From Candidatus Poribacteria bacterium (GTDB lineage Bacteria > Poribacteria > WGA-4E > PCPOR2b), in NCBI GenBank assembly GCA_965215015.1, contig OZ244042.1:1824001-1888000 (forward strand): a DNA stretch of 64,000 nucleotides, in the 5' to 3' direction. The translations under genes and the position numbers were made by a program. Below, in pieces: positions 70 to 64,000 of this stretch (the first letter of the stretch is position 1; every line of letters begins with the position of its first letter). The notes under the pieces were generated by a model. That model worked only from the letters and a program-made list of their open reading frames with translations, was not told where the DNA came from and ran no database searches.

Positions 70-230
70 GTGCTGAGGAACCTCATCATCATTTAGTAGT
101 AACAACGGAAAATTTCTGGAGTGTCTCGTCGGTCATCGGTCATTAGCAACCGATTTTAGCTCATCTAAAAGGAAAATCCAAAGCGCGCAGAGAAACTGAG
201 TTTTTTCTTAAAAACTCGGTTTCTGTTGCA

Positions 231-743
231 CCATTTCTTAACATGAGCTCCGATTTCTATTTTTTGTAGGAGTGGCGCATTTGAGTTTTTCACAACGTCA
301 TTCAACCCACATCCCGATAGCCCATAAAAATCGTCGCTAGTAGGTAGACATACTCCTTATGCTGTCCCCCTGCTTGCGGGGGGACGAGAGGGGGGTGAGG
401 ATACCATTTCTTAACATGAGCTCCGATTTCTATTTTTTGTAGGAGTGGCGCATTTGAGTTTTTCACAACGTCATTCAACCCACATCCCGATAGCCCATAA
501 AAATCGTCGCTAATAGGTAGACATACTCCTTATGCTGTCCCCCTGCTTGCGGGGGGACGAGAGGGGGGTGAGGATACCATTTCTTAACATGAGCTCCGAT
601 TTCTATTTTTTGTAGGAGTGGCGCATTTGAGTTTTTCACAACGTCATTCAACCCACATCCCGATAGCCCATAAATCGTCGCCAGTAATAGACATACACCT
701 TATGCTGTCCCCCTGCTTGCGGGGGGACTAGAGGGGGGTTAGG
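231..743. repeat. Three near-identical 173-bp tandem repeats built from REP-like modules
   Basis: ccatttcttaacatgagctcc starts at 231, 404 and 577; each unit contains the cccctgcttgcgggggg palindrome. Confidence 0.95.
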
Positions 744-8000: not shown

Positions 8001-8426
8001 GATACCCCTGCACTGCCCCCGCTTGCAGAACACCATCAACTTGTGAAACGGGGGACAGAGTTGATAATAGATGAGGAAAAGTCGGTTGGCGGAGGCCTCG
8101 GACGACCGTCGGGGGCGCGGTTCCGTACCTATGAACGTCTGAAGCAGTACGCCAACGAGGTAAAAGGAATGCTATTTGATACGCAAGACCTGGGACGAGC
8201 CATTGAAGACATCAATCGATACCCGTTGCGTCAGGAGGCGACCGACGCCCTGAATCGCCAACTGCGTAGCGGTATTTCCGATCAAGCCCTTGTGGAACTG
8301 GTAATCGCGCTGCGGAACGAAGATCGGCTCTGTATTATTCAAGAGGAGGCGCGAACACGAGAACCGCAGATTATCTGTTCATTGGGGCTTGCAGCCAGCG
8401 AAGGAGAGAACACCGATGCCAATTAA
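5025..8426 (+). CDS. Phospholipase-D-like nuclease fused to SNF2-type helicase (restriction/defence component)
   Basis: LHAKLYL...GSSNLT PLD motif; GDVVGLGKT Walker A; LIDESHN; LSATP; QRAGRVDRIG. Confidence 0.9.
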   Translation: MPRIFDNIDQRLLPALCKTLTTANHADFCVGYFNLRGWRGLSSYIEEWKGGEGGCCRLLVGMQLPPEETFRGAMRLNKGKDGIDNQRALRLKQRLAEEFREQLTVGVPTRKDEKGLRQLAQQIRDDKVKVKLFLRHPLHAKLYLLYRPDPIAPIVGYLGSSNLTLAGLSRQGELNIDVVDSDACQKLENWFEERWKDRWCIDISKELVEIIEQSWAREERIPPYHIYIKMAYHLSQEARAGLTEFQIPSDFENELFEFQTAAVKIAARHLNRRGGVLIGDVVGLGKTLMGTALARIFEDDYDLETLIICPKNLMNMWEDYRQRYRLRGKVLSSSQVISKLPDLRRYRLVLIDESHNLRNREGKRYSAIREYIEKNDSKVILLSATPYNKTYLDLSNQLRLFVDESEDLGIRPEQLLRSLGGEAAFVSKHQSGPRTLAAFEHSEHIDDWRELMRLYLVRRTRSFIMENYTETEPQTGRKFLSFPDGTRSYFPTRIPKTVKFTIDDQNSNDPYAQLYSPHVVDTISNLKLPRYGLANYIDKGPSQQPTSGEQGQLDNLSRGGKRLIGFSRTNLFKRLESSGHVFLQSVERHILRNYIYLYAIEKDKPLPIGTQDAQMLDSRLYDEDTDTPNLMSNPFDDDTEAQVDDTSSQLAAYTTDAFKRQAAEIYRLYTTQYRSRFGWIRPNLFCQSLRDDLAADARALLKILQQYGAWDAAKDAKLNALEDLLTQSHSEDKILIFTQFADTVRYLNEVLSARGIAQLAAVTGASSDPTELAQRFSPVSNNRQNTQNELRVLISTDILSEGQNLQDCAIVVNYDLPWAIIRLVQRAGRVDRIGQNAENILCYSFLPAEGVERIIALRGRVRERLHQNAEVVGTDEAFFEDDRNEQAIVDLYHERAGLLDDELDNDVDLASYAYQIWKNAITQDPQLEGTVSQLLPVVYSTRPHCPTDTEPEGALIYMRTGEGNDTLAWVNRDGDSVTESQFAILQAAACAPDTPALPPLAEHHQLVKRGTELIIDEEKSVGGGLGRPSGARFRTYERLKQYANEVKGMLFDTQDLGRAIEDINRYPLRQEATDALNRQLRSGISDQALVELVIALRNEDRLCIIQEEARTREPQIICSLGLAASEGENTDAN

Positions 8427-11400: not shown

Positions 11401-11658
11401 ATAGAAGGGGCAATAAAGCGTAGTCTTTGTGGAATTTCCGCTGACCTGATGATAGATTTAAGACGCCACGCGCAGCGCAAGGAGACCTACTATCAAGCCA
11501 CTGGACGCGTTGTCTTTGACGAATTTTCTCCGCGTCACTCCAAGCCCATCATGGACGAAATTGACCGGGTACTTGCCCAGCACTACGGCTTCATCGACGA
11601 AGAATTAGACTTCATCATCAACTACGACATCAAATACCGGATGGGGTTGGGAAAATGA
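8416..11658 (+). CDS. Large N6-adenine DNA methyltransferase (Eco57I/type IIG-like MTase with C-terminal TRD)
   Basis: ILDPTCGSGAFL (motif I) and IIGNPPY (motif IV); ATG at 8416 overlaps the helicase end. Confidence 0.92.
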   Translation: MPINRDQTCQLLGDFEFETLLIEELGWDYHTQSLSITIDETEYLLTAIAEKRGMVVFQCAARTDGNIPDYATRRRIQREVAKSVHEHLIIYTNTERTTQIWQLAKREPGRPIACPEHRYDSEQSGESLIQKLKMIAVSFDEEEDITLLDVTGRVRAAFDVERVTRRFYDRFKTEHAQFLNFLEGLPDQEMERWYASVMLNRLMFIYFIQKKDFLNDDIEYLRTKLTESQVNGNDRYYTDFLCPLFFEGFAKPESERSREVHRLLGKVPYLNGGIFQRHQLEELYGERIQIADAAFEKLFNFFEGYQWHLDERPLRNDNEINPDVLGYIFEKYINQRQMGAYYTKEDITEYISKNTVIPFLFNAARKECKIAFEGEASVWGLLQDNPDRYIYDAVKTGVKGDLPPEIAAGIDDVSKRGLWNTLAPDEYALPTETWRETVARRSRYEAVHTQLSNSEIDEVNALITYNLDIRQFAQDVIENCEGPELLRAFWKAITQVTILDPTCGSGAFLFAALNILEPLYEACLDRMEIFLDDLQHSPRLRGGRDFRKILKSIDQHPNRRYFILKSIIVNNLYGVDIMEEAIEICKLRLFLKMVAQIEDVRRIEPLPDIDFNIQAGNTLVGYATYDEVEKAVTENRIDFDNTMESLQEKAEDVEHLFEQFRLQQTELGGAVTPDDKQALRDKLKVLEDELNRYLSGEYGVDANKKAAYQKWLSSHKPFHWFIEFYGILKAGGFDVIIGNPPYVEYSKVKKEYKIRGYETENCGNLHAFVFEKSLRLLQRSGWKSMIIPHSAYCTDRMSSLQDLFHRSRRVGWVQTYGIRPTKLFVGAELSLAIYIVQQGSQVSPALYTSRYNRWHEQFRPHLFDVIEHANITQISFQNSVPKIYSEIEQDIWKKIARFSVLGKHLYKRPDSCTIYFHNSGYWIRAMDFVPYFWNARGGERRSPQVKLLCFATELDAAVAMATLNSSLFYWWFVILSTCRTLSLREIRNFPIGVDKIEGAIKRSLCGISADLMIDLRRHAQRKETYYQATGRVVFDEFSPRHSKPIMDEIDRVLAQHYGFIDEELDFIINYDIKYRMGLGK

Positions 11659-16130: not shown

Positions 16131-16621
16131 GCGAAAATCCGTATGGATACCAGAAGTGCCGCAGACAGATGCGAACAACGTCACACTATAGTAAATACCC
16201 CTAGCCTCCTATATAGCTCCAGGCTCAATGAGCCATCCCCTGTCTTGCAACACACCTGGTCCCTGTAGCGCAATTCAACCCGCGTCTTTAAGGGAGTCGG
16301 CATACGCCGTATGCCGACTCCTCCCTCTTCTCCCCGCTTGCGGGGGATTTGGTTCGTAGTAGCGCGTTCATTGCGCGTGGAATGGCCAACCCCCCTAACC
16401 CCCCGCAAGCAGGGGGAGGGTACACGGAACATGCCGACTACTTAACGCTGAATATTGCGCGCCCTTTTCTAGTGTTGGCGTCGAGGGTTCAACGCCGTAA
16501 GGCGACGGTAGTGGTTGAAACTATCAAGTGTGTTGCTCCTCTGCGGCGGGGACAAATCTTCGCAAAACAGAGATATTAAGCGAGCAAAAGCCTATTGGCA
16601 GGAATACAAGGAGATGCCAAG

Positions 16622-19405
16622 ATGAGACAAATGATAAAATACCGCGATTACCTAATAGAAAGACTTGCGGATCACGAGGAAGCGGCTGCCTATCTTCAGA
16701 CATCTCAAGAAAAATACCAGAAAGACGGTGACACTGACGCATTTTTGTTAGCACTCCAAAGCATCGCCAAGGCGCAGGCAGGGAACAATGAACTCGTTTC
16801 CGAAGTCTATTTATTGAGCGGCACAGTTCATCGCTCACGAGGGGAGTATGACTCGGCGATTGAAGATTATAACACAGTGATAAAATTGACTAACACAGTA
16901 ATAGAACTGAATCCCAATAATGTTGAAACCTATATCCGCCGTGGCATAGCTTACCACTACAAAGGCGAGTATGGCTCCGCCGTTGAAGACTTTAACAAAG
17001 CAATAGAACTAGAGCCAAACATACCTCAAATCTATTTAGCGCGAGGCATAGCTTACCACTACAAAGGCGAGTATGGCTCCGCTATTGAGGACACTACTAA
17101 AGCATTAGAACTGAATCCTGATAATGCCGAGGCTTATCAGTATCGTGGTCTGGCTTATCAGAGCAAAGGTGATTATGACCGTAGTGAAGGCAATTATGAC
17201 TGCGCTATCGCAGATTTCACCAAAGTAATAGACCTGAACCCCAACGATACTAATGCGTACTGCGGTCGTGGCCACGCTTACCAGAGCAAAGGTGATTATG
17301 ACTGCGCCATCGCAGACTTCACCAAAGCAATAGACCTGAACCCCAACGATGCTAGAGCCTATTGTGGTCGCGGTTACGCTCATCACAGCAAAGGCGACTA
17401 CGGCTGCGCCATTGAAGATTGCACCAAAGCAATAGACCTGAACCCCAAGGAGGCCAATGTCTATAACCATCGCGGCGTTATCTATTATTACAACGGTGAT
17501 TATGACCGTGCCATTGAAGACTATAATAGGGCGATACAACTGAATCCCAACTCTGCTCGAGCTTATAACAATCGTGGGACTGCCTATCGTGATAAAGGCG
17601 AAATTGACCGTGCCATCGTGGACTTTAACAGGGCGATACAATTCAACTCTGATTATGCCGAGGCCTATTATAATCGTGGTGTAGCTTATAGAATAAAAGG
17701 CTTGATTGGCCGTGCCATTGAAGACTATAATAGGGCGATACAACTGAATCCCAACTCTGCTCGAGCTTATAACGATCGTGGGGCTGCCTATCGTGATAAG
17801 GGCGAAATTGACCGTGCCATCGTGGACTTTAACAAGGCGATACAATTTAACTCTGATTATGCCGAGGCCTATTATAATCGTGGTGTAGCTTACAGGGTAA
17901 AAGGCTTGATTGGCCGTGCTATCGTGGATCTTAACAGGGCGATACAACTGAATCCCAATTATGCTGATGTTTATAATCACTGGACAGCGCAGTCACACCC
18001 GAAAGCACGTAAAGAAACCAGATTAGCTGTGAATCCGCTAGAAGTAGCCACTGAAATTGATACTTTCGCAGGCGTAATCCGTTACAAAAGGAGTACCTCA
18101 CGCATGTCGAAAGAAACGGTCGAAGGCATCACAAAGATAGCTGTGAGCGGATTCAAGTCGCTCGTGAACGAGTGTGCAATCGACATCTGTCCGCTGACGA
18201 TTCTTGCCGGCGCAAATAGTTCCGGGAAATCGGGCATCATGCAGCCGCTCTTGATGCTGAAGCAGACGCTGGAGGCACCGTATGATCCGGGACCCCTGTT
18301 GATTGAGGGGCCGAACGTTCAATTTACGTTGGTAGAGCAATTTTTGTCCAAGTTAATTGGTGAAGAAAGGGCAGATCGTTTTCAGGTTCAGGTTGAGACG
18401 TGTAGTTTTGGTTCTCCTTACTCAGTAAGGACAACTTTCAGAAAAATACCAACGGGTATTGAAATTGTCGAAATGACGAAGACAGAAATCAATTACCAAC
18501 TATTCCCCCCCCAGGCCGAGGATATGACCCTGTATCCTGGGATGCCATCTGAAGAAATCAAGTCATTGGCAGATCAACACTGGGGTCTCAAGGATTTTGA
18601 TACTGTTAAGTCTTCACGATGTTTTTTGCTCTGTGAATCTCAAGATGGTCGTACGTCCTCGAGTGTTACCTTTGAACTTGAGTCCGATATTTTCAACATC
18701 ATTCACCTCCCCGGATTACGAGGCAATCCAGAGCGTACCTACAAACTGACCAGTACCGGTCCATGGTATCCCGGCACCTTTGAACATTACGTTGCGAGTA
18801 TCATCCACGAGTGGCAGGAGACAAGGGATGAACGTCTAGAGACGTTAGCCAATGCCCTCTATACGCTTGGACTGACAGCACAGGTCGGCACTGAGAAAAT
18901 CGGGGATACCCGCATCGAACTTCAAGTCGGGCGCCTCCCTCTCCCCTCCGCTAGCGGGAGAGGCATGGACATGGTTAACATCACCGATGTGGGATTGGGG
19001 GTGTCCCAAGTCTTACCTGTCTTAGTCGCCCTGATTGTCGCGAAGCCGGGGCAGTTGGTCTACCTTGAACAGCCGGAGCTGCACCTCCACCCTCGCGCCC
19101 AAGTCGCGTTGGCGCAAGAGCTGGCAGCTGCGGCGAGACGTGGCGTCCGTGTCGTCGCGGAAACGCACAGTTCGCTGCTGCTCCTAGCGGTCCAAACGCT
19201 TGTCGCCGAAGGAGAACTCTCACCGGAGTTGGTGAAGCTGCATTGGTTCACACGCCGTGAAGATGGTGCCACCAAAATCGACACCGCTGATTTGGATGAG
19301 GCGGGTGCTTACGGAGATTGGCCCGAAGACTTTGATGATGTCGATTTGAAGGCGCAGAGCCGCTACATAAAGGCAGCCCAATTGCGTTTAGCTGAAAGAG
19401 CATAA
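16622..19405 (+). CDS. Fusion protein: antitoxin-like N-terminus + TPR array + ABC-type ATPase (AAA_15/DUF3696-like)
   Basis: Y..YLIERL.D.EEAAAYL...FLLALQ N-terminus; about 11 TPRs; GANSSGKS, GLGVSQVLP, LEQPELHLHP and ETHS motifs. Confidence 0.85.
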   Translation: MRQMIKYRDYLIERLADHEEAAAYLQTSQEKYQKDGDTDAFLLALQSIAKAQAGNNELVSEVYLLSGTVHRSRGEYDSAIEDYNTVIKLTNTVIELNPNNVETYIRRGIAYHYKGEYGSAVEDFNKAIELEPNIPQIYLARGIAYHYKGEYGSAIEDTTKALELNPDNAEAYQYRGLAYQSKGDYDRSEGNYDCAIADFTKVIDLNPNDTNAYCGRGHAYQSKGDYDCAIADFTKAIDLNPNDARAYCGRGYAHHSKGDYGCAIEDCTKAIDLNPKEANVYNHRGVIYYYNGDYDRAIEDYNRAIQLNPNSARAYNNRGTAYRDKGEIDRAIVDFNRAIQFNSDYAEAYYNRGVAYRIKGLIGRAIEDYNRAIQLNPNSARAYNDRGAAYRDKGEIDRAIVDFNKAIQFNSDYAEAYYNRGVAYRVKGLIGRAIVDLNRAIQLNPNYADVYNHWTAQSHPKARKETRLAVNPLEVATEIDTFAGVIRYKRSTSRMSKETVEGITKIAVSGFKSLVNECAIDICPLTILAGANSSGKSGIMQPLLMLKQTLEAPYDPGPLLIEGPNVQFTLVEQFLSKLIGEERADRFQVQVETCSFGSPYSVRTTFRKIPTGIEIVEMTKTEINYQLFPPQAEDMTLYPGMPSEEIKSLADQHWGLKDFDTVKSSRCFLLCESQDGRTSSSVTFELESDIFNIIHLPGLRGNPERTYKLTSTGPWYPGTFEHYVASIIHEWQETRDERLETLANALYTLGLTAQVGTEKIGDTRIELQVGRLPLPSASGRGMDMVNITDVGLGVSQVLPVLVALIVAKPGQLVYLEQPELHLHPRAQVALAQELAAAARRGVRVVAETHSSLLLLAVQTLVAEGELSPELVKLHWFTRREDGATKIDTADLDEAGAYGDWPEDFDDVDLKAQSRYIKAAQLRLAERA

Positions 19406-56000: not shown

Positions 56001-56554
56001 CCGGCAACATTCTTGGTTCCGAGCAGCACGGTCATATCACCGCTGTCGGTTACGACATGTACTGCAAACTCCTTGAGGAAGCGGTACAAAAACTCAAGGG
56101 CGAGGAGGTCGAAGAAAGGGTTGAAACACGGATTAACCTCCCTATTGAAGCCTACCTACCCGATGAATACGTCCCTGACAGCCGGCAAAAGGTGGCACTT
56201 TACAAAAAAATTGCTGCCCTAGAAACAGAAGTAGATCGAAAAGAACTTGAAGAGGAAATCGTTGACCGATACGGAAAAATCCCTGAGCCGGTTGAGATGC
56301 TCCTCGAAATTGCCGACTTGAAACAACTCAGTCAACAGCTAGGGGTTGATAGAATCGTCGCAGGCTTGGAAAGCATCAAAATCACATTTGATGAAGCAAA
56401 AACAAGCGTCGATCCTCGTAAGTTGATTCGACTTATCGAACAGGATCGGCGCGTCTCGCTTACACCCCCTGCACGTATGGCGGTCCGTATGACAGGCTTG
56501 GAGGGAAAAACACTCTTGCTTGCACTCAAGCGTATCCTTGGGAAATTAATGTGA
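53066..56554 (+). CDS. mfd: Transcription-repair coupling factor
   Basis: RGDILD, VVHVSHGIGRY, CGDVGYGKTEVA, DEEHRFGV, QLRGRVGR, DLEIRGTG. Confidence 0.98.
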   Translation: MIDLLRQSNAYQSLVKTLTAQFSGVECAPISSNQQIDRPRPWLRGLHEASTAYLLSALAADFPDKSFLVVLPTQHEAEKIIQDLPAYHFDGGNLFPQWQNFLYDGISPTKNVVAERLICLYQLLKGDRAFIVTSIHALMHKILPQSLVESAFMTLRIGDEIAPDKVVEQLLRNGYQRVDLVEVKGELARRGDILDLYPLTTDAPIRIEFFGDEIDAIRAFNPASQRSVSDEGDDEQGAITLCPVREIILSPKTLDHWKTRAEILIQNNESPKYRNAINEITHRLETETNPEGLEALLPMLYEDTSILTDYLTPQTVVLLIEPNWMAREGRKLIEDTKDLYERKLAFDQFMVSPDETFVSFESVISALQTYPLVRTSLTPPGLNTEEQVEEIAFGMRPLGLPRSNYRMVMDQIKGWTDEGYFVNFLCDNPKSADRLHNILADRNLPATQTTVNIGSISEGFISETLKFITLSEDELFGREHRRHRKTAFKEGTPILSLIDLKEKDYVVHVSHGIGRYVGIRRLDIDGKPQDFLVIDYADGGRLYVPTYQIDLVQKYIGGQEDGKLRLDKLGGTSWERVKAKVKASIEQMATELLELYAIRESREGYAFPVDTPWQKDFEVLFPYQETPDQQKAIEEVKQDMECLQPMDRLICGDVGYGKTEVALRAAFKSVMAGKQVALLAPTTILTLQHFNTFQQRFDPFPVQVEMLNRFRTDKEAKRVVEGLANGTVDIVIGTHALLSNNIKFRELGLLVVDEEHRFGVKHKEKIKQMKQTVDVLTLTATPIPRTLHMSLVGIRDFSVINTPPENRLPIETYVMEYNPDVVRDAILREMERGGQIFFVHNRVQSIASIAAAIQDLVPLARVCMAHGQMPERQLEKVMMEFINHKYDVLVCTMIIESGVDIPTVNTILINRADAFGLAQLYQLRGRVGRDQYQAYGYLFYPPGRAITEGAQKRLRVIEEFTDLGSGFKIALRDLEIRGTGNILGSEQHGHITAVGYDMYCKLLEEAVQKLKGEEVEERVETRINLPIEAYLPDEYVPDSRQKVALYKKIAALETEVDRKELEEEIVDRYGKIPEPVEMLLEIADLKQLSQQLGVDRIVAGLESIKITFDEAKTSVDPRKLIRLIEQDRRVSLTPPARMAVRMTGLEGKTLLLALKRILGKLM

Positions 56555-56689
56555 GGTGTGAGTAAAGCCTGATGCGTATTACATAACACTGTTTGTGGGC
56601 ATACATATCTTGTTAACAATATGGGTGTACCACCAACCGCGAAGGCAATGTCTTCGCATTCCATACCAATCAAAAAGGAGCAATACACA

Positions 56690-57652
56690 ATGAAAAAAAT
56701 ATTGATAATTTTCGTCGTTATTATGGCGATCGGTTTAAGCAGCTGGCAGATTGTTCAATCGCAAGACGTTGTTGGGCCAATGGATGAACATCAGATTATT
56801 GTGGCTCAATACGAATGGAACGGCACTCATGAGATTTCGCTTGCAACACTTAATGCGGAAATTGCAGCACTGCCGGCACATAAACAGAAAGGCTACCAGT
56901 CCAAAGCTGGTAAGCTCATATTTCTGGAGGACTTCATCAACCAAAAACTAATGTTCCTCGCAGCTGCTGAGAAAGGGTTCGATAAAAATGAGGAGCTCTT
57001 AAAAAAAGGCGATGACTATAAGGATCAGTTAATGGTCGAACGCTTGACCGAAATTGAAGTCGATGAGAAAATTGTCATCACCGAGGACGCGCTTCGGCAG
57101 TATTATGAGGAAAATAAAGATACGTATGTAGATAAGGAAAAAGTGCGGGCAACTTGCATCACTGTATTCGATAAAGAGCTCGCACAAGCAACGCTAAAGG
57201 AGATTCAAGCCGGCAAAGACATCCTTGATGCGGCGAAAGAACTTGGGGAAAAAAAGGTACTGACTGGACCAGGCTCAAATCCGGGTGATCCGGGTGACAC
57301 CGGCTTCTTTACGCGAGATATTTCTGCACGTGCACAGGCGTTTGTTGACGCGGCCTTTGCTATGGAAGTCGGCGAAATGACCGAGGAGGTTTTTGAGCAG
57401 GAGGTTGAGGATGCTACCTATTATATGATCTTCCGAAAGGAAGAACATCAACCAGAACGCCAGCAGACCTTTGAAGAGGTCAAGCCTCGACTTGAGTATC
57501 CCCTAAAACGTGAGATGAAGCGGACTCGCATCCTAAAATGGTTAGAAGAGCTTACTGCACAAGCTGAACTCAAAACGTATCCAGAACTGCTTCCTCCGCC
57601 CGTGGTACCCGAAGAGGAAGAAGATCCAGAAAATGAAGAATCTGAGCAGTAA
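56690..57652 (+). CDS. PrsA/SurA-like parvulin peptidyl-prolyl isomerase
   Basis: Signal peptide, SurA-N-like helices, GDTGFF, FVDAAFAMEVGE. Confidence 0.82.
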   Translation: MKKILIIFVVIMAIGLSSWQIVQSQDVVGPMDEHQIIVAQYEWNGTHEISLATLNAEIAALPAHKQKGYQSKAGKLIFLEDFINQKLMFLAAAEKGFDKNEELLKKGDDYKDQLMVERLTEIEVDEKIVITEDALRQYYEENKDTYVDKEKVRATCITVFDKELAQATLKEIQAGKDILDAAKELGEKKVLTGPGSNPGDPGDTGFFTRDISARAQAFVDAAFAMEVGEMTEEVFEQEVEDATYYMIFRKEEHQPERQQTFEEVKPRLEYPLKREMKRTRILKWLEELTAQAELKTYPELLPPPVVPEEEEDPENEESEQ

Positions 57653-57756
57653 GAGAATACAAAATTGGATAGATCTATCGTGTTCAGAAATTGGTTGACA
57701 AATGGGTGGCGAAGTCGAATAAGTGTATATCACGCAAAATTTAAGGAGGTATAACT

Positions 57757-58749
57757 GTGAAACTATTGGGAATTATTGGTTTTATCTTAATCGGTGTTGT
57801 TGCTGTTAGTATTTCTTTGAACGGGTGTGGCGGAAAAGCCGGAGCTGAAGGCACTGTGATTGCTGAATTTGAATGGAATGGAAAACACTACGTCACGCTC
57901 GAAGAGATGCTACAGGAGATAAGCGAACTTCCTACGTATAAACAACAACAGTACCAAGAAGTAGAAGGCGGGTTTGAGGAATATATGAACCTGATGGCGG
58001 AGAGCCGACTCATACTTTGCCTGGCCAAAGACCGAAAGCTGGATGAGGATGCCGGGGTTCGGAAAAAGGTGCAAGATTATTACCATGAGTTACTCGTTGA
58101 CAGAATTACGGAAATTGAAGTCGATCAGAAACTTAAACTGACCGAGGAAGATTACCGTATTTATTATGAAGAAAATAAAAGTGATTATGTGGTGCCGGAA
58201 CAGGTGCGACTCACCTGTATAACCCTTACAAATGAGGAACGATCGAAGGCGGTCTTTGAACGAATCAAGGGGGGCGAAGACATTGTTGCCATTGCAAAGG
58301 AGCTACAAGGAAACAACGAGTTAGTCGGACCGGGAGCAAATAACGAACTCCCCGGCGACACCGGATTGTTCGATAACAAGGTATATTCTCGACGCGCAAA
58401 GGCGTTTAGCGATGCGGCGTTTGCACTGGAAGTGGGTCAAATGAACGAGGAGATTCTCCATATCGAACTTGATGGCGAGAACTATTACCTAATCTTTCGT
58501 AAGGAGGAGGTCCAGCCGGAACGTCAACAAACACTTGAAGAAAACAGTGTACGACGCAATGTGGAAAGACAAGTAGAGCATCAGAAGCGTGAAGAACTTA
58601 TGACCGATTGGCTGATCCGACTCCATGAACAAGCGGAGGTCAAAACCTTTGCAGAGCGAATCCCCGACACGCCAGAGCCAGAGGAGGAAGTAGAAAGTGA
58701 ATCGTCCGATGAGGGTGAGGCCTCCGCTGAACCTGAAGCCGAACCTTAG
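57757..58749 (+). CDS. PrsA-like parvulin lipoprotein (paralog of the upstream gene)
   Basis: Lipobox LNGC; EWNG, EIEVD, GDTG and YY.IFRKEE shared with 56690-57652. Confidence 0.82.
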   Translation: MKLLGIIGFILIGVVAVSISLNGCGGKAGAEGTVIAEFEWNGKHYVTLEEMLQEISELPTYKQQQYQEVEGGFEEYMNLMAESRLILCLAKDRKLDEDAGVRKKVQDYYHELLVDRITEIEVDQKLKLTEEDYRIYYEENKSDYVVPEQVRLTCITLTNEERSKAVFERIKGGEDIVAIAKELQGNNELVGPGANNELPGDTGLFDNKVYSRRAKAFSDAAFALEVGQMNEEILHIELDGENYYLIFRKEEVQPERQQTLEENSVRRNVERQVEHQKREELMTDWLIRLHEQAEVKTFAERIPDTPEPEEEVESESSDEGEASAEPEAEP

Positions 58750-58752
58750 AAA

Positions 58753-58965
58753 TTAACGTACTCCCAAACCTAAAGGATTGGGAGTCTAGGATTGTTAGTG
58801 TGCCGCTAACAAGTGTCCCATTGCTATAGGAGTGGAATTAGGGTATCAACGACTCTTGCGAGCCAAAACCCGTTTGACGGTGTCTCCTCCAATGGACAAA
58901 TTCTTAAAAAAAACGCTAAAGCGCATGGGTGTATCCCCAAGATAAATCTTGGGATTTTACATAAA
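58753..58965 (-). mobile_element. Non-coding IS200/IS605 miniature element (left-end hairpin + reRNA/right end)
   Basis: Minus strand cgttgat...aattccactccta...gggaca...caatcctttaggtttgggagtacgTTAA matches 40202-40273; hairpin cccaagataaatcttggg near the other end. Confidence 0.75.
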
Positions 58966-59010
58966 GGATTTTTGATAAAACTTTGAATTAGGAAGGAGGC
59001 ATACTCCTAA

Positions 59011-60300
59011 ATGAAAATGTTTCGTTTCTGTACCCTGATTCTATTGACTGTCTATTTTGGAATCAATCCTGCCGCTGCACGAAGATTCGATCAGATTATC
59101 GCTTATGTCAACAATGACGTAATCACCAAATGGGAGCTCGACAGCGTCGTGAGTCAAAAAGCGATGGAGCTCCAGCAAGTTTATCGGTTCAGTGAACGTG
59201 AAGCGATGCAAAAGGCAGAGCAAGAACGAGCTGTGCTCCTCGATCAATTAATTCGCCAGATGCTTCTCGTCGAAGCAGCGTTAACGCTAAAAATCGAGAT
59301 CACAGAGGCTGAAGTGGAGCAATATCTGCAAAACTTCAAAGACCAGTACAAGATCGAGACCGAAGCGGAGCTTGCTCAAGCGTTAAAGAAAGAAGGATAT
59401 ACCCTGATGTCTTTCCGTGAACAAGCTAAACGCAATCTGATGGCAGAACGACTCGTAATGCAACGTATCCTTCCTAGACTCCAAATCCGGGACTCGGATG
59501 TGCAGAAGTTCTTTGAAGAAAACCGCTCGCAATTGCCAACTAAAATAGACAGAGTCCATCTTCGGCACATCTTTGTTGCTTTCAAGCCGAGCGAGACAGA
59601 TCGCAAGCTAGCCCTTGACAAAATCGACACCATTCTTCAGGAATTAAAGGCTGGGAAGGATTTTGAGAGACTCGCGCAACGCTATGCTAGCGATGAAGGA
59701 AGAAAGGCAGGGATTGGACTATTAAACGAACTACCGACTGCGGAGATGGACAACCTCTCCCCTACCTTCCGTGATACACTTGCGGCACTCAATGCCGGTG
59801 AGACCAGCGAGCCAGTTGAAGGTAATGATGGGTTTTATCTTTTTAAAGTTGAGCGTAAAGATGATCAGACCATCGCTTTTCGTCATTTGGTTGTCAGTCT
59901 GAAGCCGAGTGAGGAGGCGATGGAAGCTGCTTATGAACGCACTGATAGTCTCCTCCGACAGCTAAACCAAGGTGAAGACTTCAACATGCTCGCCCGACAA
60001 TACTCCGACGATTCACAGACGAAAGCCAACGGTGGTGATCTCGGGGTCCGTTCACTCAGTGAGCTAAATCCCGACACTCGGGAAATTATCGAAGGGCTTT
60101 CTATCGGAGCGCATAGTGCGCCGGTCAAAACAACGTATGGCACGCATATTTTCAAAATCGATAGCCGTACTGCCCCCGAATTGGGCGATGCTGAAAAAGA
60201 CCAGGTCCGAATAATGCTGCGTCAGCAAAAATTTCAAGAGGAATGGCAACTTTACACGGATCTACTCAAGGAAAATTCCTTCATAAAAATTAGGGAATAA
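59011..60300 (+). CDS. surA: SurA-like chaperone with two parvulin domains
   Basis: DQIIAYVNNDVIT, VHLRHIFV, FERLAQRY, FNMLARQYSDD...GGDLG, YGTHIFKI. Confidence 0.85.
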   Translation: MKMFRFCTLILLTVYFGINPAAARRFDQIIAYVNNDVITKWELDSVVSQKAMELQQVYRFSEREAMQKAEQERAVLLDQLIRQMLLVEAALTLKIEITEAEVEQYLQNFKDQYKIETEAELAQALKKEGYTLMSFREQAKRNLMAERLVMQRILPRLQIRDSDVQKFFEENRSQLPTKIDRVHLRHIFVAFKPSETDRKLALDKIDTILQELKAGKDFERLAQRYASDEGRKAGIGLLNELPTAEMDNLSPTFRDTLAALNAGETSEPVEGNDGFYLFKVERKDDQTIAFRHLVVSLKPSEEAMEAAYERTDSLLRQLNQGEDFNMLARQYSDDSQTKANGGDLGVRSLSELNPDTREIIEGLSIGAHSAPVKTTYGTHIFKIDSRTAPELGDAEKDQVRIMLRQQKFQEEWQLYTDLLKENSFIKIRE

Positions 60301-60346
60301 GTCGTTACTGGCCTTTAATAAAACGCAGGAACGCCAGGGGGCTAAG

Positions 60347-60544
60347 ACGCCTGGACGCTCAGAAAATCGAGACAATAAGAAAACGAGCAAACCGGCTTCC
60401 CTGCGTCAGGGAAGGGGGGCTTCATCCCGAATGATTTCAACACCGGCCTGTGAAGCTTTGTCTAACAGGCGTTGTAAAGTCGATCGGAAAGCAGAAAAAA
60501 ATCTTTATTCACTTTTTTTGCTTTGTGTCCTAGCGTCCAAGCGT
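60347..60544. repeat. Possible MITE with 13-bp imperfect inverted ends
   Basis: acgcctggacgct ... agcgtccaagcgt (12/13 match). Confidence 0.35.
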
Positions 60545-60757
60545 TAAATTCAGACGCGTGAACCGGCGCAGAAGACTGAAGATCTTCGTGAATCTATGAT
60601 GCGGTAAGCATTCCCTGTGGAGGGCAACCGAATCAGAACTGGCACCCCCGCTTGCGGGGGACTGAGGGGGTAGGTCTTGTGCCTGCTCAAAGCGGACAAC
60701 CACAAAGGTTGCTGCTCTTGAATAGTTGGTTTCACAGCGTAACAGAGGAAAGGTAGG

Positions 60758-63700
60758 ATGGAAAGGAGGGAAGAACAGAAACGACAAAATATAGCGAGAA
60801 AAGGAGGGAAATCAACTTTCCAGTTTTCCACCCCTCTTTCTCCCCAATTGCTTAATCGTTTTTTAAGATGCACGTTTTACCTTCTACGTTTTACGTCCCG
60901 TGTATCACTTTTTATACTTCACATCCTATCACTCGCGATTCTCACGTTCAGCCTAATTTCGCCCACGGGTGAATTGGCCGCCCAAACTGACCCGCCACCT
61001 GCTACCGATGAAGAGGTTTCCGGCATACAGACTGAGACGCCATCAGAAACCTCTCTAGCGACAGAGCCATCTGATCCCGAAGCCCCCGTTGATGAGGAAT
61101 CGTCCGCAATAGCCCCTGAAGAAACATCAGAAACCCCGACAGTCCCAGACGCATCTTCACCTGAAGAACCCGCCCAAACCAGTCGAAAACTCGATCCGGA
61201 GAACATGTCACCCGAACCGGGGGACCTGCTTGCAAAGGGCGATGATCTGACTTTTCACAATAACCTTATCCAAATCCACGGCAATGGACTGATCAAATAC
61301 GACGAAGTTGTGCTCTATGCTGACCATATCTGGGCAGACTTTGAGGAAAATATGATGCGGGCATCGGGAAACGTGCATCTCCTCGTCGGGAACGAAGAAA
61401 CTTTCGCAAACGAACTCCTTTACAACATAAAAACAAAAAAAGGAATTATTCGCGAAGGGTTCACTTTCAGTGATCCATGGTACTACCGCGGTACTGACAT
61501 CTTCAAAGTCGAAGATGATGAATCCTACATCCGTGGTGGAACTTTGACAACATGCTCTCTCAAACACCCCCACTTCTACTTCAGCGCATCTCAGATTATC
61601 GTCAAGATAAACAAAGAGTTGATTGCCAAGAATATCGTTCTGAGGATCGGGGGGGTGCCGCTCTTCTATTTTCCTGCCTACCGCCGTGATCTTCGCAAGG
61701 AAGACAAGGTCGCCAAAATCATCGTCAAAGTTGGAACTGATAGCTATCAGGGGGTATTCCTTAGCGTAATCTTGCCACTGGCGCGTCGCCAGCGATATGA
61801 CGGTGCCCTGCTGTTCGATCACTCGAGCCGTCGAGGAAGTGGAGGGGGTTTTGAAGGGAAATACCGTGTAAACGATGTCCGATTCCAAGAGATTCTCGTG
61901 CCTTTGCATCCCGATGCAACACCGAGCGAGCGAGCGAAACTAGAAGAGAAAGCGCAGGAATTATCAGACCGGCTGGAGGGCGAGTATGACCGGTATCAGC
62001 TGCGCCAACTCTTTCTGGAATATAAAATCTCTGAAGAAGACATCGCCGCTGCTCTCGAAAAGGCGGAGAACATCCAGGCCCAACTACAAGAGGCAGACGC
62101 AGATTTCGCAAAGATTGCACAAGATAAATCAACCGATCAGGAGACGCGCTATCAGGGGGGTGACATGGGGTTTTTGGTGCGAGGGGAACGGGATGAAGAA
62201 GACAAACTGCGGCTAGATCCAATCCTCGAAGAGGCTATCTTTCAACTCGAACCGGGGGAAATTACACCGATTCTCAGGACAGAAGCTGGATTCCATATTT
62301 TAAAGGTCGATCGTGCGCTTGATGTATATGGTCAACGAGAACTCCAGATTAGCCGAATTGATGTAGCAATCGAACCAAGCCAAGAGACCCGCGACACAAT
62401 TCAGATGACCGCAAAAGAAATCCAGGAACGCGCAGATGCAGGAGAGGTACTCGAACAATTAGTTGGACAATATGAGGGAGTTGAAGTTTCTGAAGCTAAT
62501 GAAGGCGCAGGGTTTCTGTTGAATGAAATGGATCGGCGTTGGAAGCACCCCGTAAGCCGACTAGAGACCCCTGGAGAAATAACTTGGCCCATATACACCG
62601 ACCGAGGTGTCTATATCCTTCAGTTAATCGAAAAGGAACCGACCCCGACCTTTGAAGAAATTGCACGTCAATTTGAAGCGGAATGGGAAGCGATTGAAAA
62701 GGAATTGGGGCAAACTGCAACAACAGAAAACGATGAAAGTGAACAACAGGAAGAAGGGATAGAGGGACAGGATAGTCACGAGATAAACACGGATGGGGCG
62801 GGAAGCGAAGAGAAGGCTGATAGAGGGACACCAGAAGATAACCCACAAGGTGCTTTGAAGCCCGATAAAATCGGGGACGATGAGACAACGGATCTGCCGG
62901 AAGAAGATACGGAACCGGAGAAGGTGCAGGTCTACCAGCAATACGATTATCGAGGACGGTGGGAGACGCTGCCCCAAATCTTCTCACAATCACAGCGACT
63001 CTATGCCGGAGATCACAGCTCAATGATCAAGACAGGTACTGGATATCGTCTGATTAAAGTCGATAAAAGGCGTACTTATAGGGGCGACCTCTACTTTTAT
63101 ACCAATGATGAGTTTTCTTTTAATCGCCAAAAGCCATTCAAAACGGGGCGGCGATGGAATCTCCGGTGGGGGCACCGGCACGCTTTCTACACACCGTGGG
63201 ACAGCCGGGCCAGGGGACGACGGCCTGTGAGTTTTGTAGGACGGGTGGCGTGGCGAGCAAAGGATTTTGAAGAGGAGGGATTTGGAATCAGTGAATCTAC
63301 TATCAATTCTTTTGGTATGTTCACATGGGGAACCGCCTTTCATTCGCTGAATTATCAAGATAGAGACGAAGACGGAAACTTAAAATTTTCGCACAAGACA
63401 ATTGGGGAATTCTTGGGACGGCTACAGGTTAATCATACCTTAAACCTTACGGGTGAAGGGACAACAACCTTGCAAAAGCTACCCGCACTCAATCTTTCGC
63501 TTAGACGCATGCGCTTAGATCGGTTGCCTGTTTTCAAAACTATTAATTCAGGGCTAACCGAAGTTGCCGATCGGTTATACACCGAGCTCCCAATCCTTTC
63601 GATGTTTGCCTTTCCGACGCTTGAGAACATCAGTTTTGATCTGGAGACGAACTTCGGTAATTTTTTCCGTGAACGGTTTCGAGACGAAGAAAATGTCTAT

Positions 63701-64000
63701 TTGCAAACAATGGATCTCGGGTTTGATCTTCGTAAGCAATCAGTACTCCAAATAATCCCGAATCGCGAGTTGCGACTCGACGCGGATTTCGACACCAACC
63801 TCATTTGGCATGACAAAGATCGGGAAGGAAATCAGAATATTTTCCGAGGTATATACAGCACCCGGCTCTCTGCCAGCAATCTGCTGTTTCGGATCTATGA
63901 CATCAGCTTCATTCCAGGGGCGCGGCGGATGCGCCATCAAATCAACTCAAGGGTATCATTTGATTACGCACCACCTGTCGACAGAGAAGATGCTCCCCAA
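60758..64000 (+). CDS. lptD: LptD-like LPS-assembly protein with inserted parvulin domains (3'-partial)
   Basis: Frame +2 is open to the window end by manual translation: LYADHI, ASGNV, TTCSLKHPH, GVPLFYFP, then PPIase motifs and aromatic beta-strands; start is 60758 or the TTG at 60848. Confidence 0.8.
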   Translation, partial: MERREEQKRQNIARKGGKSTFQFSTPLSPQLLNRFLRCTFYLLRFTSRVSLFILHILSLAILTFSLISPTGELAAQTDPPPATDEEVSGIQTETPSETSLATEPSDPEAPVDEESSAIAPEETSETPTVPDASSPEEPAQTSRKLDPENMSPEPGDLLAKGDDLTFHNNLIQIHGNGLIKYDEVVLYADHIWADFEENMMRASGNVHLLVGNEETFANELLYNIKTKKGIIREGFTFSDPWYYRGTDIFKVEDDESYIRGGTLTTCSLKHPHFYFSASQIIVKINKELIAKNIVLRIGGVPLFYFPAYRRDLRKEDKVAKIIVKVGTDSYQGVFLSVILPLARRQRYDGALLFDHSSRRGSGGGFEGKYRVNDVRFQEILVPLHPDATPSERAKLEEKAQELSDRLEGEYDRYQLRQLFLEYKISEEDIAAALEKAENIQAQLQEADADFAKIAQDKSTDQETRYQGGDMGFLVRGERDEEDKLRLDPILEEAIFQLEPGEITPILRTEAGFHILKVDRALDVYGQRELQISRIDVAIEPSQETRDTIQMTAKEIQERADAGEVLEQLVGQYEGVEVSEANEGAGFLLNEMDRRWKHPVSRLETPGEITWPIYTDRGVYILQLIEKEPTPTFEEIARQFEAEWEAIEKELGQTATTENDESEQQEEGIEGQDSHEINTDGAGSEEKADRGTPEDNPQGALKPDKIGDDETTDLPEEDTEPEKVQVYQQYDYRGRWETLPQIFSQSQRLYAGDHSSMIKTGTGYRLIKVDKRRTYRGDLYFYTNDEFSFNRQKPFKTGRRWNLRWGHRHAFYTPWDSRARGRRPVSFVGRVAWRAKDFEEEGFGISESTINSFGMFTWGTAFHSLNYQDRDEDGNLKFSHKTIGEFLGRLQVNHTLNLTGEGTTTLQKLPALNLSLRRMRLDRLPVFKTINSGLTEVADRLYTELPILSMFAFPTLENISFDLETNFGNFFRERFRDEENVYLQTMDLGFDLRKQSVLQIIPNRELRLDADFDTNLIWHDKDREGNQNIFRGIYSTRLSASNLLFRIYDISFIPGARRMRHQINSRVSFDYAPPVDREDAPQ

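Follow-up and report, generated by a model that had tools for sequence, protein, structure and literature searches.

The gene that closes the 64,000-nucleotide stretch of Candidatus Poribacteria DNA analysed here (the window) encodes, as judged from profile alignment and structural models, an LptD homologue whose predicted outer-membrane barrel carries a large module of nested parvulin domains, most probably in a periplasmic turn. We found no published description of nested parvulins inside an LptD barrel turn. The module is probably a non-catalytic unit, either binding and holdase-like or bracing, and not a full SurA. For the whole of our explanation, which blends the architecture, the membrane side and the mechanism set out below, we estimate a probability of roughly 0.55.

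The reading frame is real and its LptD motifs are where the first-pass annotation had placed them. It starts with the ATG at 60758, just 3' of a purine-rich ribosome-binding stretch, and stays open up to the window end, giving 1081 residues in the ORF call; the public protein P0001 (1327 aa) is 100% identical along this entire fragment. The motifs TTC and GVPLFYFP correspond to residues 264-266 and 299-306. Residues 1-76, with a mean identity to the reference of 0.27, are by their sequence probably a long signal peptide, the hydrophobic stretch of which stops near Ala75-Gln76 (both A75 and Q76 at least 90% conserved). The linker that follows shows an identity of 0.28 and 33% gaps, and the jellyroll behind it has 12 strands in the AlphaFold model of an 86%-identical orthologue. 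The features are collected in the table.

Table. Features of the LptD-like gene and the genes upstream of it (residues are those of the LptD-like protein)
Feature	Residues	Position (nt)	Strand	dN/dS	Basis or remark
PPIase, 343 aa, Rotamase_2		56621..57652	+		Pfam E 1.1e-14; in 75/80 loci
PPIase, 330 aa, Rotamase_2		57757..58749	+		Pfam E 4.9e-12; in 76/80 loci
SurA homologue, 429 aa, directly upstream of LptD-like gene		59011..60300	+		SurA_N, SurA_N_3, two Rotamase
LptD-like gene with nested parvulin insert	1-1081	60758..64000	+		codons 1-1081 of 1327; runs past window end
N-terminal pre-sequence	1-76	60758..60985	+	0.33-0.82 (residues 1-150)	basic stretch, then hydrophobic stretch (sequence)
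Acidic Pro/Ser/Thr-rich linker	77-150	60986..61207	+	as above	composition; weakly conserved
OstA/LptA-type periplasmic beta-jellyroll	157-311	61226..61690	+	0.04-0.08	model, NCBIfam, hhalign
Barrel strands beta1-beta4	~317-372	61706..61873	+		homology; only beta4 modelled confidently
Pa, N-terminal piece (strand 1, helix 1)	373-411	61874..61990	+	0.05-0.10	model 2, hhalign
Inner parvulin Pb, complete	412-523	61991..62326	+	0.09-0.15	Pfam Rotamase, model 2
Inner parvulin Pc, complete	526-626	62333..62635	+	0.12-0.20	Pfam Rotamase, hhalign
Pa resumes, long helix	627-653	62636..62716	+		model 2 H267-287
Acidic disordered loop within Pa (67 residues)	654-720	62717..62917	+	0.19-0.66	pLDDT <50, both models
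Pa, C-terminal piece (strand, helix, two strands)	721-767	62918..63058	+	0.24-0.59	model 2, hhalign
Barrel from beta5 on	768-1081	63059..64000	+	0.09-0.14	hhalign, Foldseek; remaining barrel outside window
38-residue helical segment in beta10-beta11 turn	920-957	63515..63628	+		model 1, alignment

The insert comprises about 395 residues and enters the barrel at one clean point. Its plan is that of a parvulin, Pa, into which two complete parvulins in tandem, Pb and Pc, are set behind strand 1 and helix 1. Each inner domain by itself matches Pfam Rotamase (gathering score 21.7), Pb with 72.6 bits (E 5.3e-20) and Pc with 26.8 bits (E 1.1e-5), and hhalign relates Pb to Pc with a probability of 98%. 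The outer domain is less overt. Its C-terminal piece hit no Pfam family (0), yet it aligns by hhalign with columns 35-102 of the parvulin profile, counted in Pb columns (probability 97.4%, E 1.6e-11), while the N-terminal piece aligns with columns 2-35 or 3-34 at probabilities of 28% and 73%; the long helix at which Pa resumes falls, in the alignment, on a parvulin's second helix region. In model 2, both the N-terminal piece (E2-17, H24-41) and the C-terminal piece (E361-367, H374-382, E392-394, E397-413) have pLDDT >90. Strand 1 of Pa is the continuation of barrel strand beta4, and the last strand of its C-terminal piece runs on into beta5. The secondary-structure elements follow one another as strand-helix-[two domains]-helix-loop-strand-helix-strand-strand in two AlphaFold models, and in more distant relatives, which lack the acidic loop, Pa has a canonical parvulin sequence. 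On these profiles and models, the two pieces together are one predicted parvulin. The same nesting had been proposed at first pass, with a complete parvulin 2 at 61994-62310 and parvulin 3 at 62342-62626 inside a split parvulin 1; the Rotamase matches of the inner two, the agreement of profile comparison, distant relatives and both models on the split, and the resumption of the outer domain, whose strand motif begins at residue 762 (nt 63041), all bear it out. We are nearly certain of the architecture, an LptD homologue with parvulins nested in this way.

The acidic loop stands where canonical parvulins have the Ser...Gly-Gly-Asp-x-Gly loop. Across 65 sequences it measures 30-143 residues (median 69) with a median Asp+Glu content of 36%; in the distant clade only 2 residues occupy its position. 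Purifying selection on the Pa N-terminal piece, Pb and Pc (dN/dS 0.05-0.20) is as strong as on the barrel, and the Pa C-terminal piece evolves faster.

By fold, the insert best matches a two-parvulin PPIase (8hm4_B, E 9e-12), PpiD and SurA; PpiD 8zht and PrsA chains are among its fold matches. The inner pair Pb-Pc is collinear with P1-P2 of SurA: profile positions 396-604 fall on residues 168-370 of 1m5y_A, and residues 175-383 of the window's own SurA align with the insert at E 3e-13. Like SurA, the insert is predicted to be periplasmic. Unlike SurA, it lacks the N- and C-terminal core, and its tandem pair sits inside a third parvulin and is covalently joined to an outer-membrane barrel. Searches of the LptD-like protein for SurA_N, SurA_N_2 and SurA_N_3 gave no match, and the C-terminal part of the SurA core is absent too. 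The earlier label "SurA-type" is therefore apt for Pb-Pc and does not extend to the rest of the insert. E. coli LptD is strongly SurA-dependent and a prime SurA client according to the accessible part of PMC3747590, in agreement with the background given at first pass. The same text locates the chaperone activity of E. coli SurA in the N/C core and describes its parvulins as largely dispensable. Since the insert has no such core, homology does not imply a chaperone, and the first-pass view of an outer-membrane translocon with "its own embedded chaperone module" claims more than the data allow: the SurA core is missing, and no domain has both active-site histidines.

As first noted, three PPIase genes precede the LptD-like gene, two with Rotamase_2 and the third with SurA_N and two Rotamase domains. 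The third matches NCBIfam SurA over its whole length (E 5.9e-36, under the curated cut-off), and a surA homologue is the immediate upstream neighbour in 79 of the 80 loci. With free SurA and the two PPIases kept adjacent, the embedded module can be no simple replacement for them.

How might such a protein work? The gene product would form the outer-membrane end of the lipopolysaccharide transport bridge in Poribacteria, with the roughly 395-residue module in place of the beta4-beta5 periplasmic turn. On the periplasmic side, beta4 would run on as the first strand of Pa and beta5 as its last. Pa is in turn broken between helices 1 and 2 by the SurA-like tandem of Pb and Pc; in the window's clade, its active-site loop has been exchanged for the acidic disordered loop. 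The resulting module may be a permanently tethered, non-catalytic peptide-binding unit resembling SurA P1, adjoining the jellyroll and the lateral-gate lobe (beta1-beta4). Made early, ahead of the remaining 22 strands, it could hold or guide the still unfolded C-terminal portion of so large a barrel, perhaps along with partner proteins, during assembly at BAM, and so take over in cis some of the work that E. coli LptD owes to free SurA. We regard this holdase-in-cis mechanism as tentative, with odds somewhat short of even.

A competing idea, in our view somewhat unlikely, is that the module handles no unfolded protein and is instead a structural brace or regulator on beta4-beta5 that tunes jellyroll orientation or gate opening. 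The two flanking barrel strands that extend into the Pa sheet would make a rigid stalk, and the site is next to beta1-beta4, which in E. coli form the lobe that shifts together with the gate and to which LptM binds, according to the available portion of bioRxiv 10.1101/2025.04.10.648201. The histidine pairs are degenerate, and the window's clade cannot form the disulfide between jellyroll and barrel, C266 being without its C725 partner in 65 of 65 sequences. However, of three distant-clade sequences (P0123, P0124, P0125) one has a cysteine at the C725 position and all have the insert, which therefore cannot have originated as a substitute for the disulfide. Moreover, two flexibly inserted, strongly conserved SurA-like parvulins exceed what a brace needs, and the contact between module and jellyroll is only putative.

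The holdase-in-cis mechanism can also be taken further, to a self-chaperoning outer-membrane protein. The module would then be a built-in holdase and BAM-targeting device with which the 26-strand barrel assembles without free SurA, staying on afterwards as a fixed periplasmic docking arm at the LPS translocon. We consider this bolder version unlikely. Were it true, the arm could physically link the arrival of new outer-membrane proteins with the LPS insertion site, the protein would be the first natural example in which a client barrel is covalently fused to domains from its chaperone's family, and the long-puzzling parvulin domains of SurA would gain a clear role.

The flanks of the insert belong to one LptD homologue, as was proposed from the sequence at first pass and as both profile alignment of the two sides and Foldseek indicate. 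Against a profile of 46 insert-less relatives, the pre-insert profile aligns with columns 33-252 (hhalign probability 100%, E 5.6e-47) and the post-insert profile with columns 254-691 (99.8%, E 9.4e-28). The insert-less profile in turn matches solved LptD structures over full-length chains (E 3.7e-53 to 3.3e-41). From a set of 29 proteins, 22 insert-less relatives were scanned: 15 cleared the gathering score for one or more LptD-family models (PF04453, PF19838, PF03968), five were sub-threshold for the LptD family or had only OstA_2 or LptC, and two matched nothing. A precomputed PF19838 match is present on five of the 120 relatives of the fused protein listed. Foldseek with the full model returned the LptD chain 4q35_A first (E 4.9e-16), and ranks down to 27 are LptD chains (E 4.9e-16 to 2.7e-8); TM-scores stay low, at 0.2-0.4, which a multi-domain model of pTM 0.52 would lead one to expect. 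By sequence profile and model, then, the gene is a Poribacterial LptD homologue with a jellyroll and a large predicted barrel.

Candidate phyla other than Poribacteria have insert-less LptD-family proteins, among them P0149, which is named LptD of Candidatus Edwardsbacteria. They share 27-34% identity over the jellyroll and first strands and have the same motifs on either side of the insertion point, but in place of the Poribacterial module they have only 5-8 loop residues. Solved LptDs from Enterobacteria, Pseudomonas and Neisseria (4q35, 5iv9, 9i9z, 7omm) likewise consist of an N-terminal jellyroll followed by a very large barrel; they are the best fold matches, are collinear by profile through the insert-less intermediates, and have the C173-equivalent cysteine that the Poribacterial protein keeps as C266 (65 of 65 sequences). 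In the window's clade C266 is the sole cysteine outside the pre-sequence, the other, C38, lying within residues 1-76. The Poribacterial protein differs from the solved LptDs in its parvulin module between beta4 and beta5, in the helical segment between beta10 and beta11 (H790-805 and H811-814 in model 1), and in a conserved C-terminal tail of about 40 residues ending in Phe. It also lacks the cysteine partner of the interdomain disulfide, with Asp, Asn or Gly occupying the E. coli C725 position in all 65 sequences, and the beta1 proline, with no proline at the position of E. coli P231; the invariant P340 lies two residues off the position aligned with E. coli P246 (beta2). Finally, it falls short of the curated LptD cut-offs: NCBIfam LptD matches residues 160-377 on model positions 63-282 with E 1.8e-6 and 26.5 bits against a cut-off of 944, Pfam LptD_2 reaches 9.1-16.6 bits against 22.5 and OstA_2 14.7-18.1 against 21.2, and PF04453 gave no match. 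In the other ORFs of the window we saw no lpt gene.

This divergence leaves room for an LptD-derived paralogue that does not transport LPS, its barrel and jellyroll reused for a different outer-membrane task with the parvulins as the working part. The barrel lies under every curated cut-off, and its post-insert profile, searched directly against solved structures, retrieved no LptD; the stem branch to the fused clade is long (1.21), the protein has neither the beta1 proline nor the C-terminal cysteine, and "LptD" is never among the public names of these proteins. We nevertheless find a paralogue improbable. Real LptDs can be aligned with jellyroll and barrel over their full length, across one gap-free junction, and the jellyroll is the most constrained portion of the protein. 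We usually recovered one copy per genome record (80 loci kept of 148; one MAG yielded two, L036 and L038), in a fixed neighbourhood. No other Poribacterial LptD appears among the named matches, a weak point since most matches are nameless.

Whether the module could be enzymatic turns on two histidines. The putative catalytic positions in Pa, Pb and Pc were placed by motif alignment with the window's SurA, and their residues were tallied over 66 sequences from the window's clade. Pa carries Glu (65) at the first and Arg (63) at the second, Pb Gln (59) or Glu (7) and then His (66), and Pc Arg (66) and then Tyr (58) or His (8), so the conserved pair is complete in none of the three domains. The pair corresponds to His59 and His157 of Pin1 in the accessible text of PMC6557836. 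From these residues the module is probably non-catalytic and not a prolyl isomerase. That at least one embedded parvulin is nonetheless an active prolyl isomerase, working on periplasmic substrates at the translocon, seems to us very improbable. Pb is the natural candidate, given its high Rotamase score, strong constraint, second histidine in 66 of 66 sequences and an Asp or His right after the conserved Ser. Against this stand the incomplete histidine pairs and the loss of the Pa loop to the acidic insertion, the catalytic positions themselves being putative and taken in part from PMC6557836; in SurA, moreover, P2 alone is active and that activity is dispensable, according to the accessible part of PMC3747590.

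The membrane side follows from alignment and strand parity, not from geometry. Strands beta1-beta4 align with insert-less LptDs and through them with E. coli residues 226-280, which puts the insertion point at E. coli LptD residues 280-285. P231 lies in beta1 and P246 in beta2 (PMC6164715 and bioRxiv 10.1101/2025.04.10.648201, both in their accessible parts), and there is room for two further strands between beta2 and residue 280. An insert in the beta4-beta5 turn would be periplasmic, since even-to-odd connections are periplasmic turns. The second line starts from the other end of the barrel. The beta24-beta25 turn carrying C724/C725 is named periplasmic in the accessible part of bioRxiv 10.1101/2025.04.10.648201, and the model has exactly 20 strand segments from the insert to the two-residue turn aligned with C724/C725, so that the post-insert strand should begin on the periplasmic side. 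From the post-insert strand to the one aligned with beta26 there are 22 segments. Beta4 is modelled confidently, and beta1-beta3 are placed by alignment only, residues 315-360 having pLDDT <50. As these two independent lines agree, we consider the periplasmic beta4-beta5 placement, which the first-pass annotation had singled out for checking, highly probable. An insert in an extracellular loop, displayed on the cell surface, is hardly credible: an alternative strand register would put it after beta3, and the first three strands are poorly modelled, but the E. coli numbering has four strands preceding the insert and the 20-strand count independently gives the periplasm.

The fusion is widespread among Poribacteria. 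We found 148 genomic relatives among species-representative genomes and kept 80 loci, 77 of them from named Poribacteria; all 64 complete ORFs have the insert, and the order mfd, PPIase, PPIase, surA, lptD is common to 75 of the 80 loci. The 394 protein matches at E <=0.001 include 120 listed ones, which all have Rotamase domains and span 1020-1370 aa. In the tree, all 17 sampled fused proteins fall on one side of a single branch and the 29 insert-less proteins on the other (SH-aLRT 100). An assembly chimera or pseudogene, a concern raised at first pass, is refuted by these relatives, by the recurrence of the architecture in many chromosome-level assemblies with every complete ORF intact, by purifying selection and by a composition unbroken across the junctions.

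The distant clade carries a fourth parvulin at the beta10-beta11 site, according to hhalign of that clade's segment. Nested parvulins have precedents: in PrsA and PpiD, both envelope folding factors, the parvulin lies within a host domain. The Poribacterial protein shares this logic, except that the host of its inner pair is itself a parvulin, whose own host is a transmembrane barrel. LptD and SurA-type domains also occur on one polypeptide in P0292, from a Methylococcales MAG. There, LptD (PF04453, residues 441-824) and SurA (SurA_N and two Rotamase domains), both complete, are fused tail to head with no insertion into the barrel, in a single record (one cluster, one member, one contig).

Nature has placed inside the barrel of an LptD a SurA-like parvulin pair that is itself held in a third parvulin. 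The nesting is three levels deep (barrel, parvulin, parvulin pair), and the protein would be a rare instance of a folded multi-domain module within a periplasmic turn of a transmembrane β-barrel. The gene is a single open frame of 1081 codons, with a purine-rich ribosome-binding stretch before its ATG, and continues past the window end. A protein search returned P0001, a public protein of 1327 aa that is 100% identical across the whole 1081-aa fragment and provides the remaining 246 residues; residue numbers here are those of P0001. GC across the region is 0.47-0.51, with no break. A Pfam scan of the protein returns a pair of Rotamase (parvulin) stretches (98.6 bits combined) and, below threshold, OstA_2 and LptD_2, while NCBIfam LptD models match residues 160-377 at E 1.8e-6, far under their cut-offs.

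Coordinates of features in the window and in P0001, with dN/dS of the window versus ten close loci by protein region, and residues at the two parvulin histidine positions (first; second) in 66 sequences of the window's clade
Feature	Window position	Residues	dN/dS	Histidine positions
Large adjacent gene pair	5025-11655			
TPR and ATPase protein	16595-19402			
First small PPIase	56621-57652 (+)			
Second small PPIase	57757-58749 (+)			
SurA homologue	59011-60300 (+)			
Gap, surA to LptD-like gene	60301-60757			
G+C-rich inverted repeat	near 60646-60662			
LptD-like gene	60758-64000 (+)			
N-terminal linker			0.33-0.82	
Acidic pre-jellyroll linker	60986-61207			
Jellyroll			0.04-0.08	
OstA_2 match		168-234		
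Cys266	61553-61555	266		
Barrel			0.09-0.14	
Pa, outer split parvulin				Glu (65/66); Arg (63/66)
Pa N-piece		373-411	0.05-0.10	
Pb, inner parvulin		412-523	0.09-0.15	Gln (59) or Glu (7); His (66)
Pc, inner parvulin		526-626	0.12-0.20	Arg (66); Tyr (58) or His (8)
Acidic loop of Pa	62717-62917		0.19-0.66	
Pa C-piece		721-767	0.24-0.59	
LptD_2 match		770-1076		
Helical segment at β10-β11	63515-63628	920-957		
Turn aligned with C724/C725		1251-1252		
C-terminal tail		~1285-1327		

None of the curated LptD cut-offs of Pfam or NCBIfam is reached by this protein. Against solved structures, the single pre-insert sequence matched only 7omm_A (E 0.15), the pre-insert profile reached E 0.0083, the post-insert barrel profile gave four chance-level matches, none of them an LptD, and the whole-protein profile had only parvulin proteins among the best 60 of 63. 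Since direct searches gave weak or no LptD matches, the link to solved LptDs needed intermediates, namely LptD-family proteins with a short loop at the insertion site (insert-less relatives). An exhaustive search of cluster representatives yielded 6979 proteins at E <= 0.001 (21 at E <= 1e-30), including remoter fused relatives at 35-46% identity (P0123-P0128, members of what we call the distant clade) and a large number of 630-790-aa proteins whose match is confined to residues ~160-375, at 26-34% identity. When 22 insert-less proteins were scanned with Pfam, 15 passed the gathering threshold for one or more LptD-family models (PF04453, PF19838, PF03968), 5 matched LptD-family models only below that threshold or matched only OstA_2 or LptC, and 2 had no Pfam match. 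With a profile of 46 shorter insert-less proteins, full-length LptDs of solved structure were found at E values between 3.7e-53 and 3.3e-41. In profile-profile comparison, the pre-insert part of the Poribacterial family corresponds to insert-less columns 33-252 (probability 100%, E 5.6e-47) and the post-insert part to columns 254-691 (99.8%, E 9.4e-28); therefore, ~395 residues stand in place of one profile column. The multiple alignment shows a 5-8-residue loop at this site in the insert-less proteins. Judged from these profiles, the two flanks form one LptD, in agreement with the first-pass annotation.

An AlphaFold2 model (model 1) was obtained for the residues equivalent to 135-1327 of an orthologue, 86% identical, encoded at locus L018 (mean pLDDT 71.8, pTM 0.52). 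In Foldseek, LptD chains rank first among its matches (4q35_A, E 4.9e-16); the TM-scores are low, at 0.2-0.4, which is to be expected when several domains are loosely packed. Residues 315-360, strands β1-β3 by homology, have pLDDT below 50. A language-model atlas, taken as a lead only, names the protein's own clusters 'PpiC domain-containing protein' and has LptD families as next-nearest (score 0.82).

Within the insert, Pb and Pc each pass the Pfam Rotamase model when scanned alone (72.6 and 26.8 bits, respectively, versus a gathering score of 21.7). Pfam on the Pa pieces of the window protein alone gave nothing relevant, and Pa is backed instead by a structural model, distant-clade sequences and profile alignment. 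In model 2, built with AlphaFold2 from residues 366-790 of the window protein itself (mean pLDDT 80.9, >90 outside one loop), a long strand (367-382) followed by a helix (389-406) leads into Pb and Pc, after which come a helix (632-652), a disordered stretch (654-720), a strand, a helix, a strand and a long strand (762-778). Distant-clade proteins have 3-4 Pfam Rotamase stretches each; their acidic stretch is just 2 residues, and the sequence after Pc is the ordinary C-terminal two-thirds of a parvulin. In local hhalign comparisons, the Pa C-piece matches Pb columns 35-102 (probability 97.4%, E 1.6e-11) and also Pc (96.4%), and the N-piece, weak alone, matches Pb columns 2-35 (28%, E 6e-4) and Pc columns 3-34 (73%, E 3e-5). 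Thus, by sequence and model, the two pieces are predicted to be complementary parts of one parvulin domain, and the three nested parvulins described in the first-pass annotation hold up. In both models, the neighbouring barrel strands run without a break into the first and last strands of Pa. By fold, the insert model is closest to the two-parvulin PPIase 8hm4_B (E 9e-12), PpiD and SurA. Pb-Pc is collinear with P1-P2 of SurA: the profile aligns to residues 168-370 of 1m5y_A, and the insert aligns to residues 175-383 of the window's own SurA (25% identity, E 3e-13).

In the LptD barrel, even-to-odd strand connections are periplasmic. Two independent arguments, the alignment to E. coli LptD and the strand count in model 1, bear on the side at which the insert lies. 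With the insert-less profile aligned to E. coli chain 9i9z_A in native numbering (prolines at 231 and 246), the insertion point falls opposite residues 280-285. P231 is in β1 and P246 in β2 (PMC6164715, figure 5 legend; strand passages of bioRxiv 10.1101/2025.04.10.648201), and residues 256-268 and 269-279, split by a Gly-Asn turn, fit β3 and β4; with two more strands before 280, the insertion site is therefore the β4-β5 connection. As to the second argument, β24-β25, with C724/C725, is termed a periplasmic turn in the same passages (bioRxiv 10.1101/2025.04.10.648201), and a two-residue turn of the model aligns with these cysteines. From the insert to that turn, the strand segments of model 1 number exactly 20 (most of them at pLDDT 75-93), so the first post-insert strand begins in the periplasm; beyond the turn, two more strands reach the strand aligned with β26. 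Both arguments agree that the parvulin module is periplasmic, as predicted from alignment and model, and the insertion maps to a periplasmic turn. Placement in an extracellular loop after β3, as a different strand register would have it, is rejected on the four strands before the insert together with the strand count. The β26-aligned strand is followed by a conserved tail of ~40 residues that ends in Ser-Tyr-Phe, is missing from insert-less relatives and, in model 1, forms two short strands of low confidence.

LptD, an outer-membrane protein, is essential and notorious for folding slowly. It is the most SurA-dependent client in E. coli, according to the SurA passages of PMC3747590, which place chaperone activity in the SurA core and not in the parvulins, describe P2 as the only catalytically active one and P1 as binding peptides and modulating the core, and treat the role of the parvulins as still unsettled. 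The embedded chaperone module proposed in the first-pass annotation therefore claims more than the sequence shows: the insert holds a tandem like SurA P1-P2, but Pfam finds no SurA core in it. We placed the active-site histidine pair, as named in the parvulin passage of PMC6557836, by motif alignment with P2 of the window's own SurA. No domain keeps both histidines. In Pa, the Ser...Gly-Gly-Asp-x-Gly loop has also given way to an acidic, disordered insertion, 30-143 residues long (median 69; 36% Asp+Glu). Because the histidine pairs are incomplete and the Pa loop is lost, catalysis by the embedded parvulins is unlikely. The reading we tentatively favor, at a probability of about 0.4, is that the module may be a tethered, non-catalytic, peptide-binding unit that would assist the very large barrel, and possibly its partners, during assembly.

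The module also adjoins β1-β4 and the jellyroll hinge, and in E. coli the β1-β4 lobe moves together with the lateral gate and is bound by LptM (lobe passages of bioRxiv 10.1101/2025.04.10.648201). The main rival explanation, in which the module structurally braces or regulates the jellyroll and gate, seems doubtful. Some colour is lent to it by the loss of an interdomain disulfide: Cys266 is kept in 65/65 sequences of the window's clade, whereas its partner position (residue 1252, past the window), a cysteine in E. coli LptD (C725) and conserved as such in insert-less relatives, is Asp, Asn or Gly in 65/65, and therefore the usual jellyroll-barrel disulfide cannot form in this clade. However, one of three distant-clade sequences (P0123, P0124, P0125) keeps the C725-position cysteine, and all three have the insert. 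Every Poribacterial relative examined has kept the arrangement, under purifying selection.

A word-indexed protein search gave 394 matches at E <= 0.001, and all 120 matches listed have Rotamase domains, at 1020-1370 aa and 49-100% identity. In a species-representative genome collection, 148 stretches encode a relative; 80 of these loci were kept (77 titled Poribacteria, 3 'uncultured bacterium'), many of them chromosome-level assemblies of 4.7-6.8 Mb. A complete ORF of >1150 aa is present in 64 of the 68 loci where a motif search located the frame, and all 64 have the insert, with 386-516 aa between fixed anchors. In the window, the three upstream ORFs, downstream of mfd, are PPIases, two with Rotamase_2 and the third a SurA homologue (SurA_N plus two Rotamase). 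The order mfd, PPIase, PPIase, surA, lptD-like on one strand recurs in 75/80 loci and surA lies upstream in 79/80; the exceptions are mostly cut by contig ends, and L014 is without the two small PPIases. The fusion is thus present in relatives, and an assembly chimera or pseudogene is ruled out by the many chromosome-level relatives, the intact ORFs with the insert and dN/dS. One MAG (contigs JAAXHL010000015 and JAAXHL010000141) gives two different fused-gene loci, L036 and L038, at 50-51% identity to the query; either the bin contains two strains or the gene is present twice.

The gap between surA and the LptD-like gene is 457 nt and holds the inverted repeat; Rfam gave 0 matches in 60250-60800. 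A scan of 56400-61100 found 10 promoter-like sites versus 5.9 +/- 2.6 expected and 2 terminator-like sites versus 5.6 expected, counts that are uninformative. The second small PPIase has a hydrophobic start followed by Leu-Asn-Gly-Cys, which, in translation, resembles a lipoprotein signal. Low-complexity acidic sequence turns up repeatedly across this envelope gene cluster: in the pre-jellyroll linker, the Pa loop and the C-terminal tails of both small PPIases.

We built a quick maximum-likelihood tree from 46 hand-chosen rows (17 fused, 29 insert-less) and 696 columns filled in at least 60% of rows, a filter that dropped the insert's own columns. In this unrooted tree, all 17 fused proteins lie on one side of one branch (SH-aLRT 100, length 1.21); six insert-less rows have long branches, and the nearest insert-less protein is P0149, named LptD of Candidatus Edwardsbacteria. 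One gain or loss would explain the distribution of the insert on such a tree. The distant clade comprises 25 proteins at E 0.0, including the query P0125 and the shorter P0126 and P0128; where named, they are from Poribacteria or 'bacterium', with one partial record labelled Gottesmanbacteria. Outside these two clades, no nested fusion was seen among the matches, most of which are without an organism name. A full-text literature search on LptD, Poribacteria, parvulin, rotamase and LPS, which covered journals outside subscription and took some papers by title or abstract start, found no such protein described. Both building blocks are well known, but not their nested, covalent union in a periplasmic barrel turn. 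Among the matches named, public names never give the LptD identity: Candidatus Poribacteria matches listed are 'hypothetical protein', 'peptidylprolyl isomerase' or 'parvulin-like peptidyl-prolyl isomerase'. On such names, an automated survey would list LptD as missing from Poribacteria.

Distant-clade proteins have a fourth parvulin at a second site, the β10-β11 turn (P0125 residues 769-917), periplasmic by strand parity; the window protein has no more than a helical segment of 38 residues at this turn. The fourth parvulin seems to be circularly permuted: parvulin columns 24-107 are matched by segment 8-93 (hhalign, 99%), and segment 100-146 matches Pb columns 1-66 (85%) or 99-137 matches Pc columns 1-39 (95%). 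A different arrangement occurs in P0292 (Methylococcales MAG, 1352 aa), in which a complete LptD (PF04453, 441-824) is followed directly by a complete SurA (SurA_N 948-1065 and two Rotamase domains); with only one record, this may be either a genuine fusion or a read-through.

Elsewhere in the window, one of two large adjacent genes has PLD-nuclease-like, SNF2 and helicase domains and the other Eco57I/MmeI-type methyltransferase domains, probably a restriction-modification or related defence pair. Another gene encodes a protein of 936 aa that has numerous TPR repeats and, at its C-terminus, an AAA_21/AAA_15 ATPase region.
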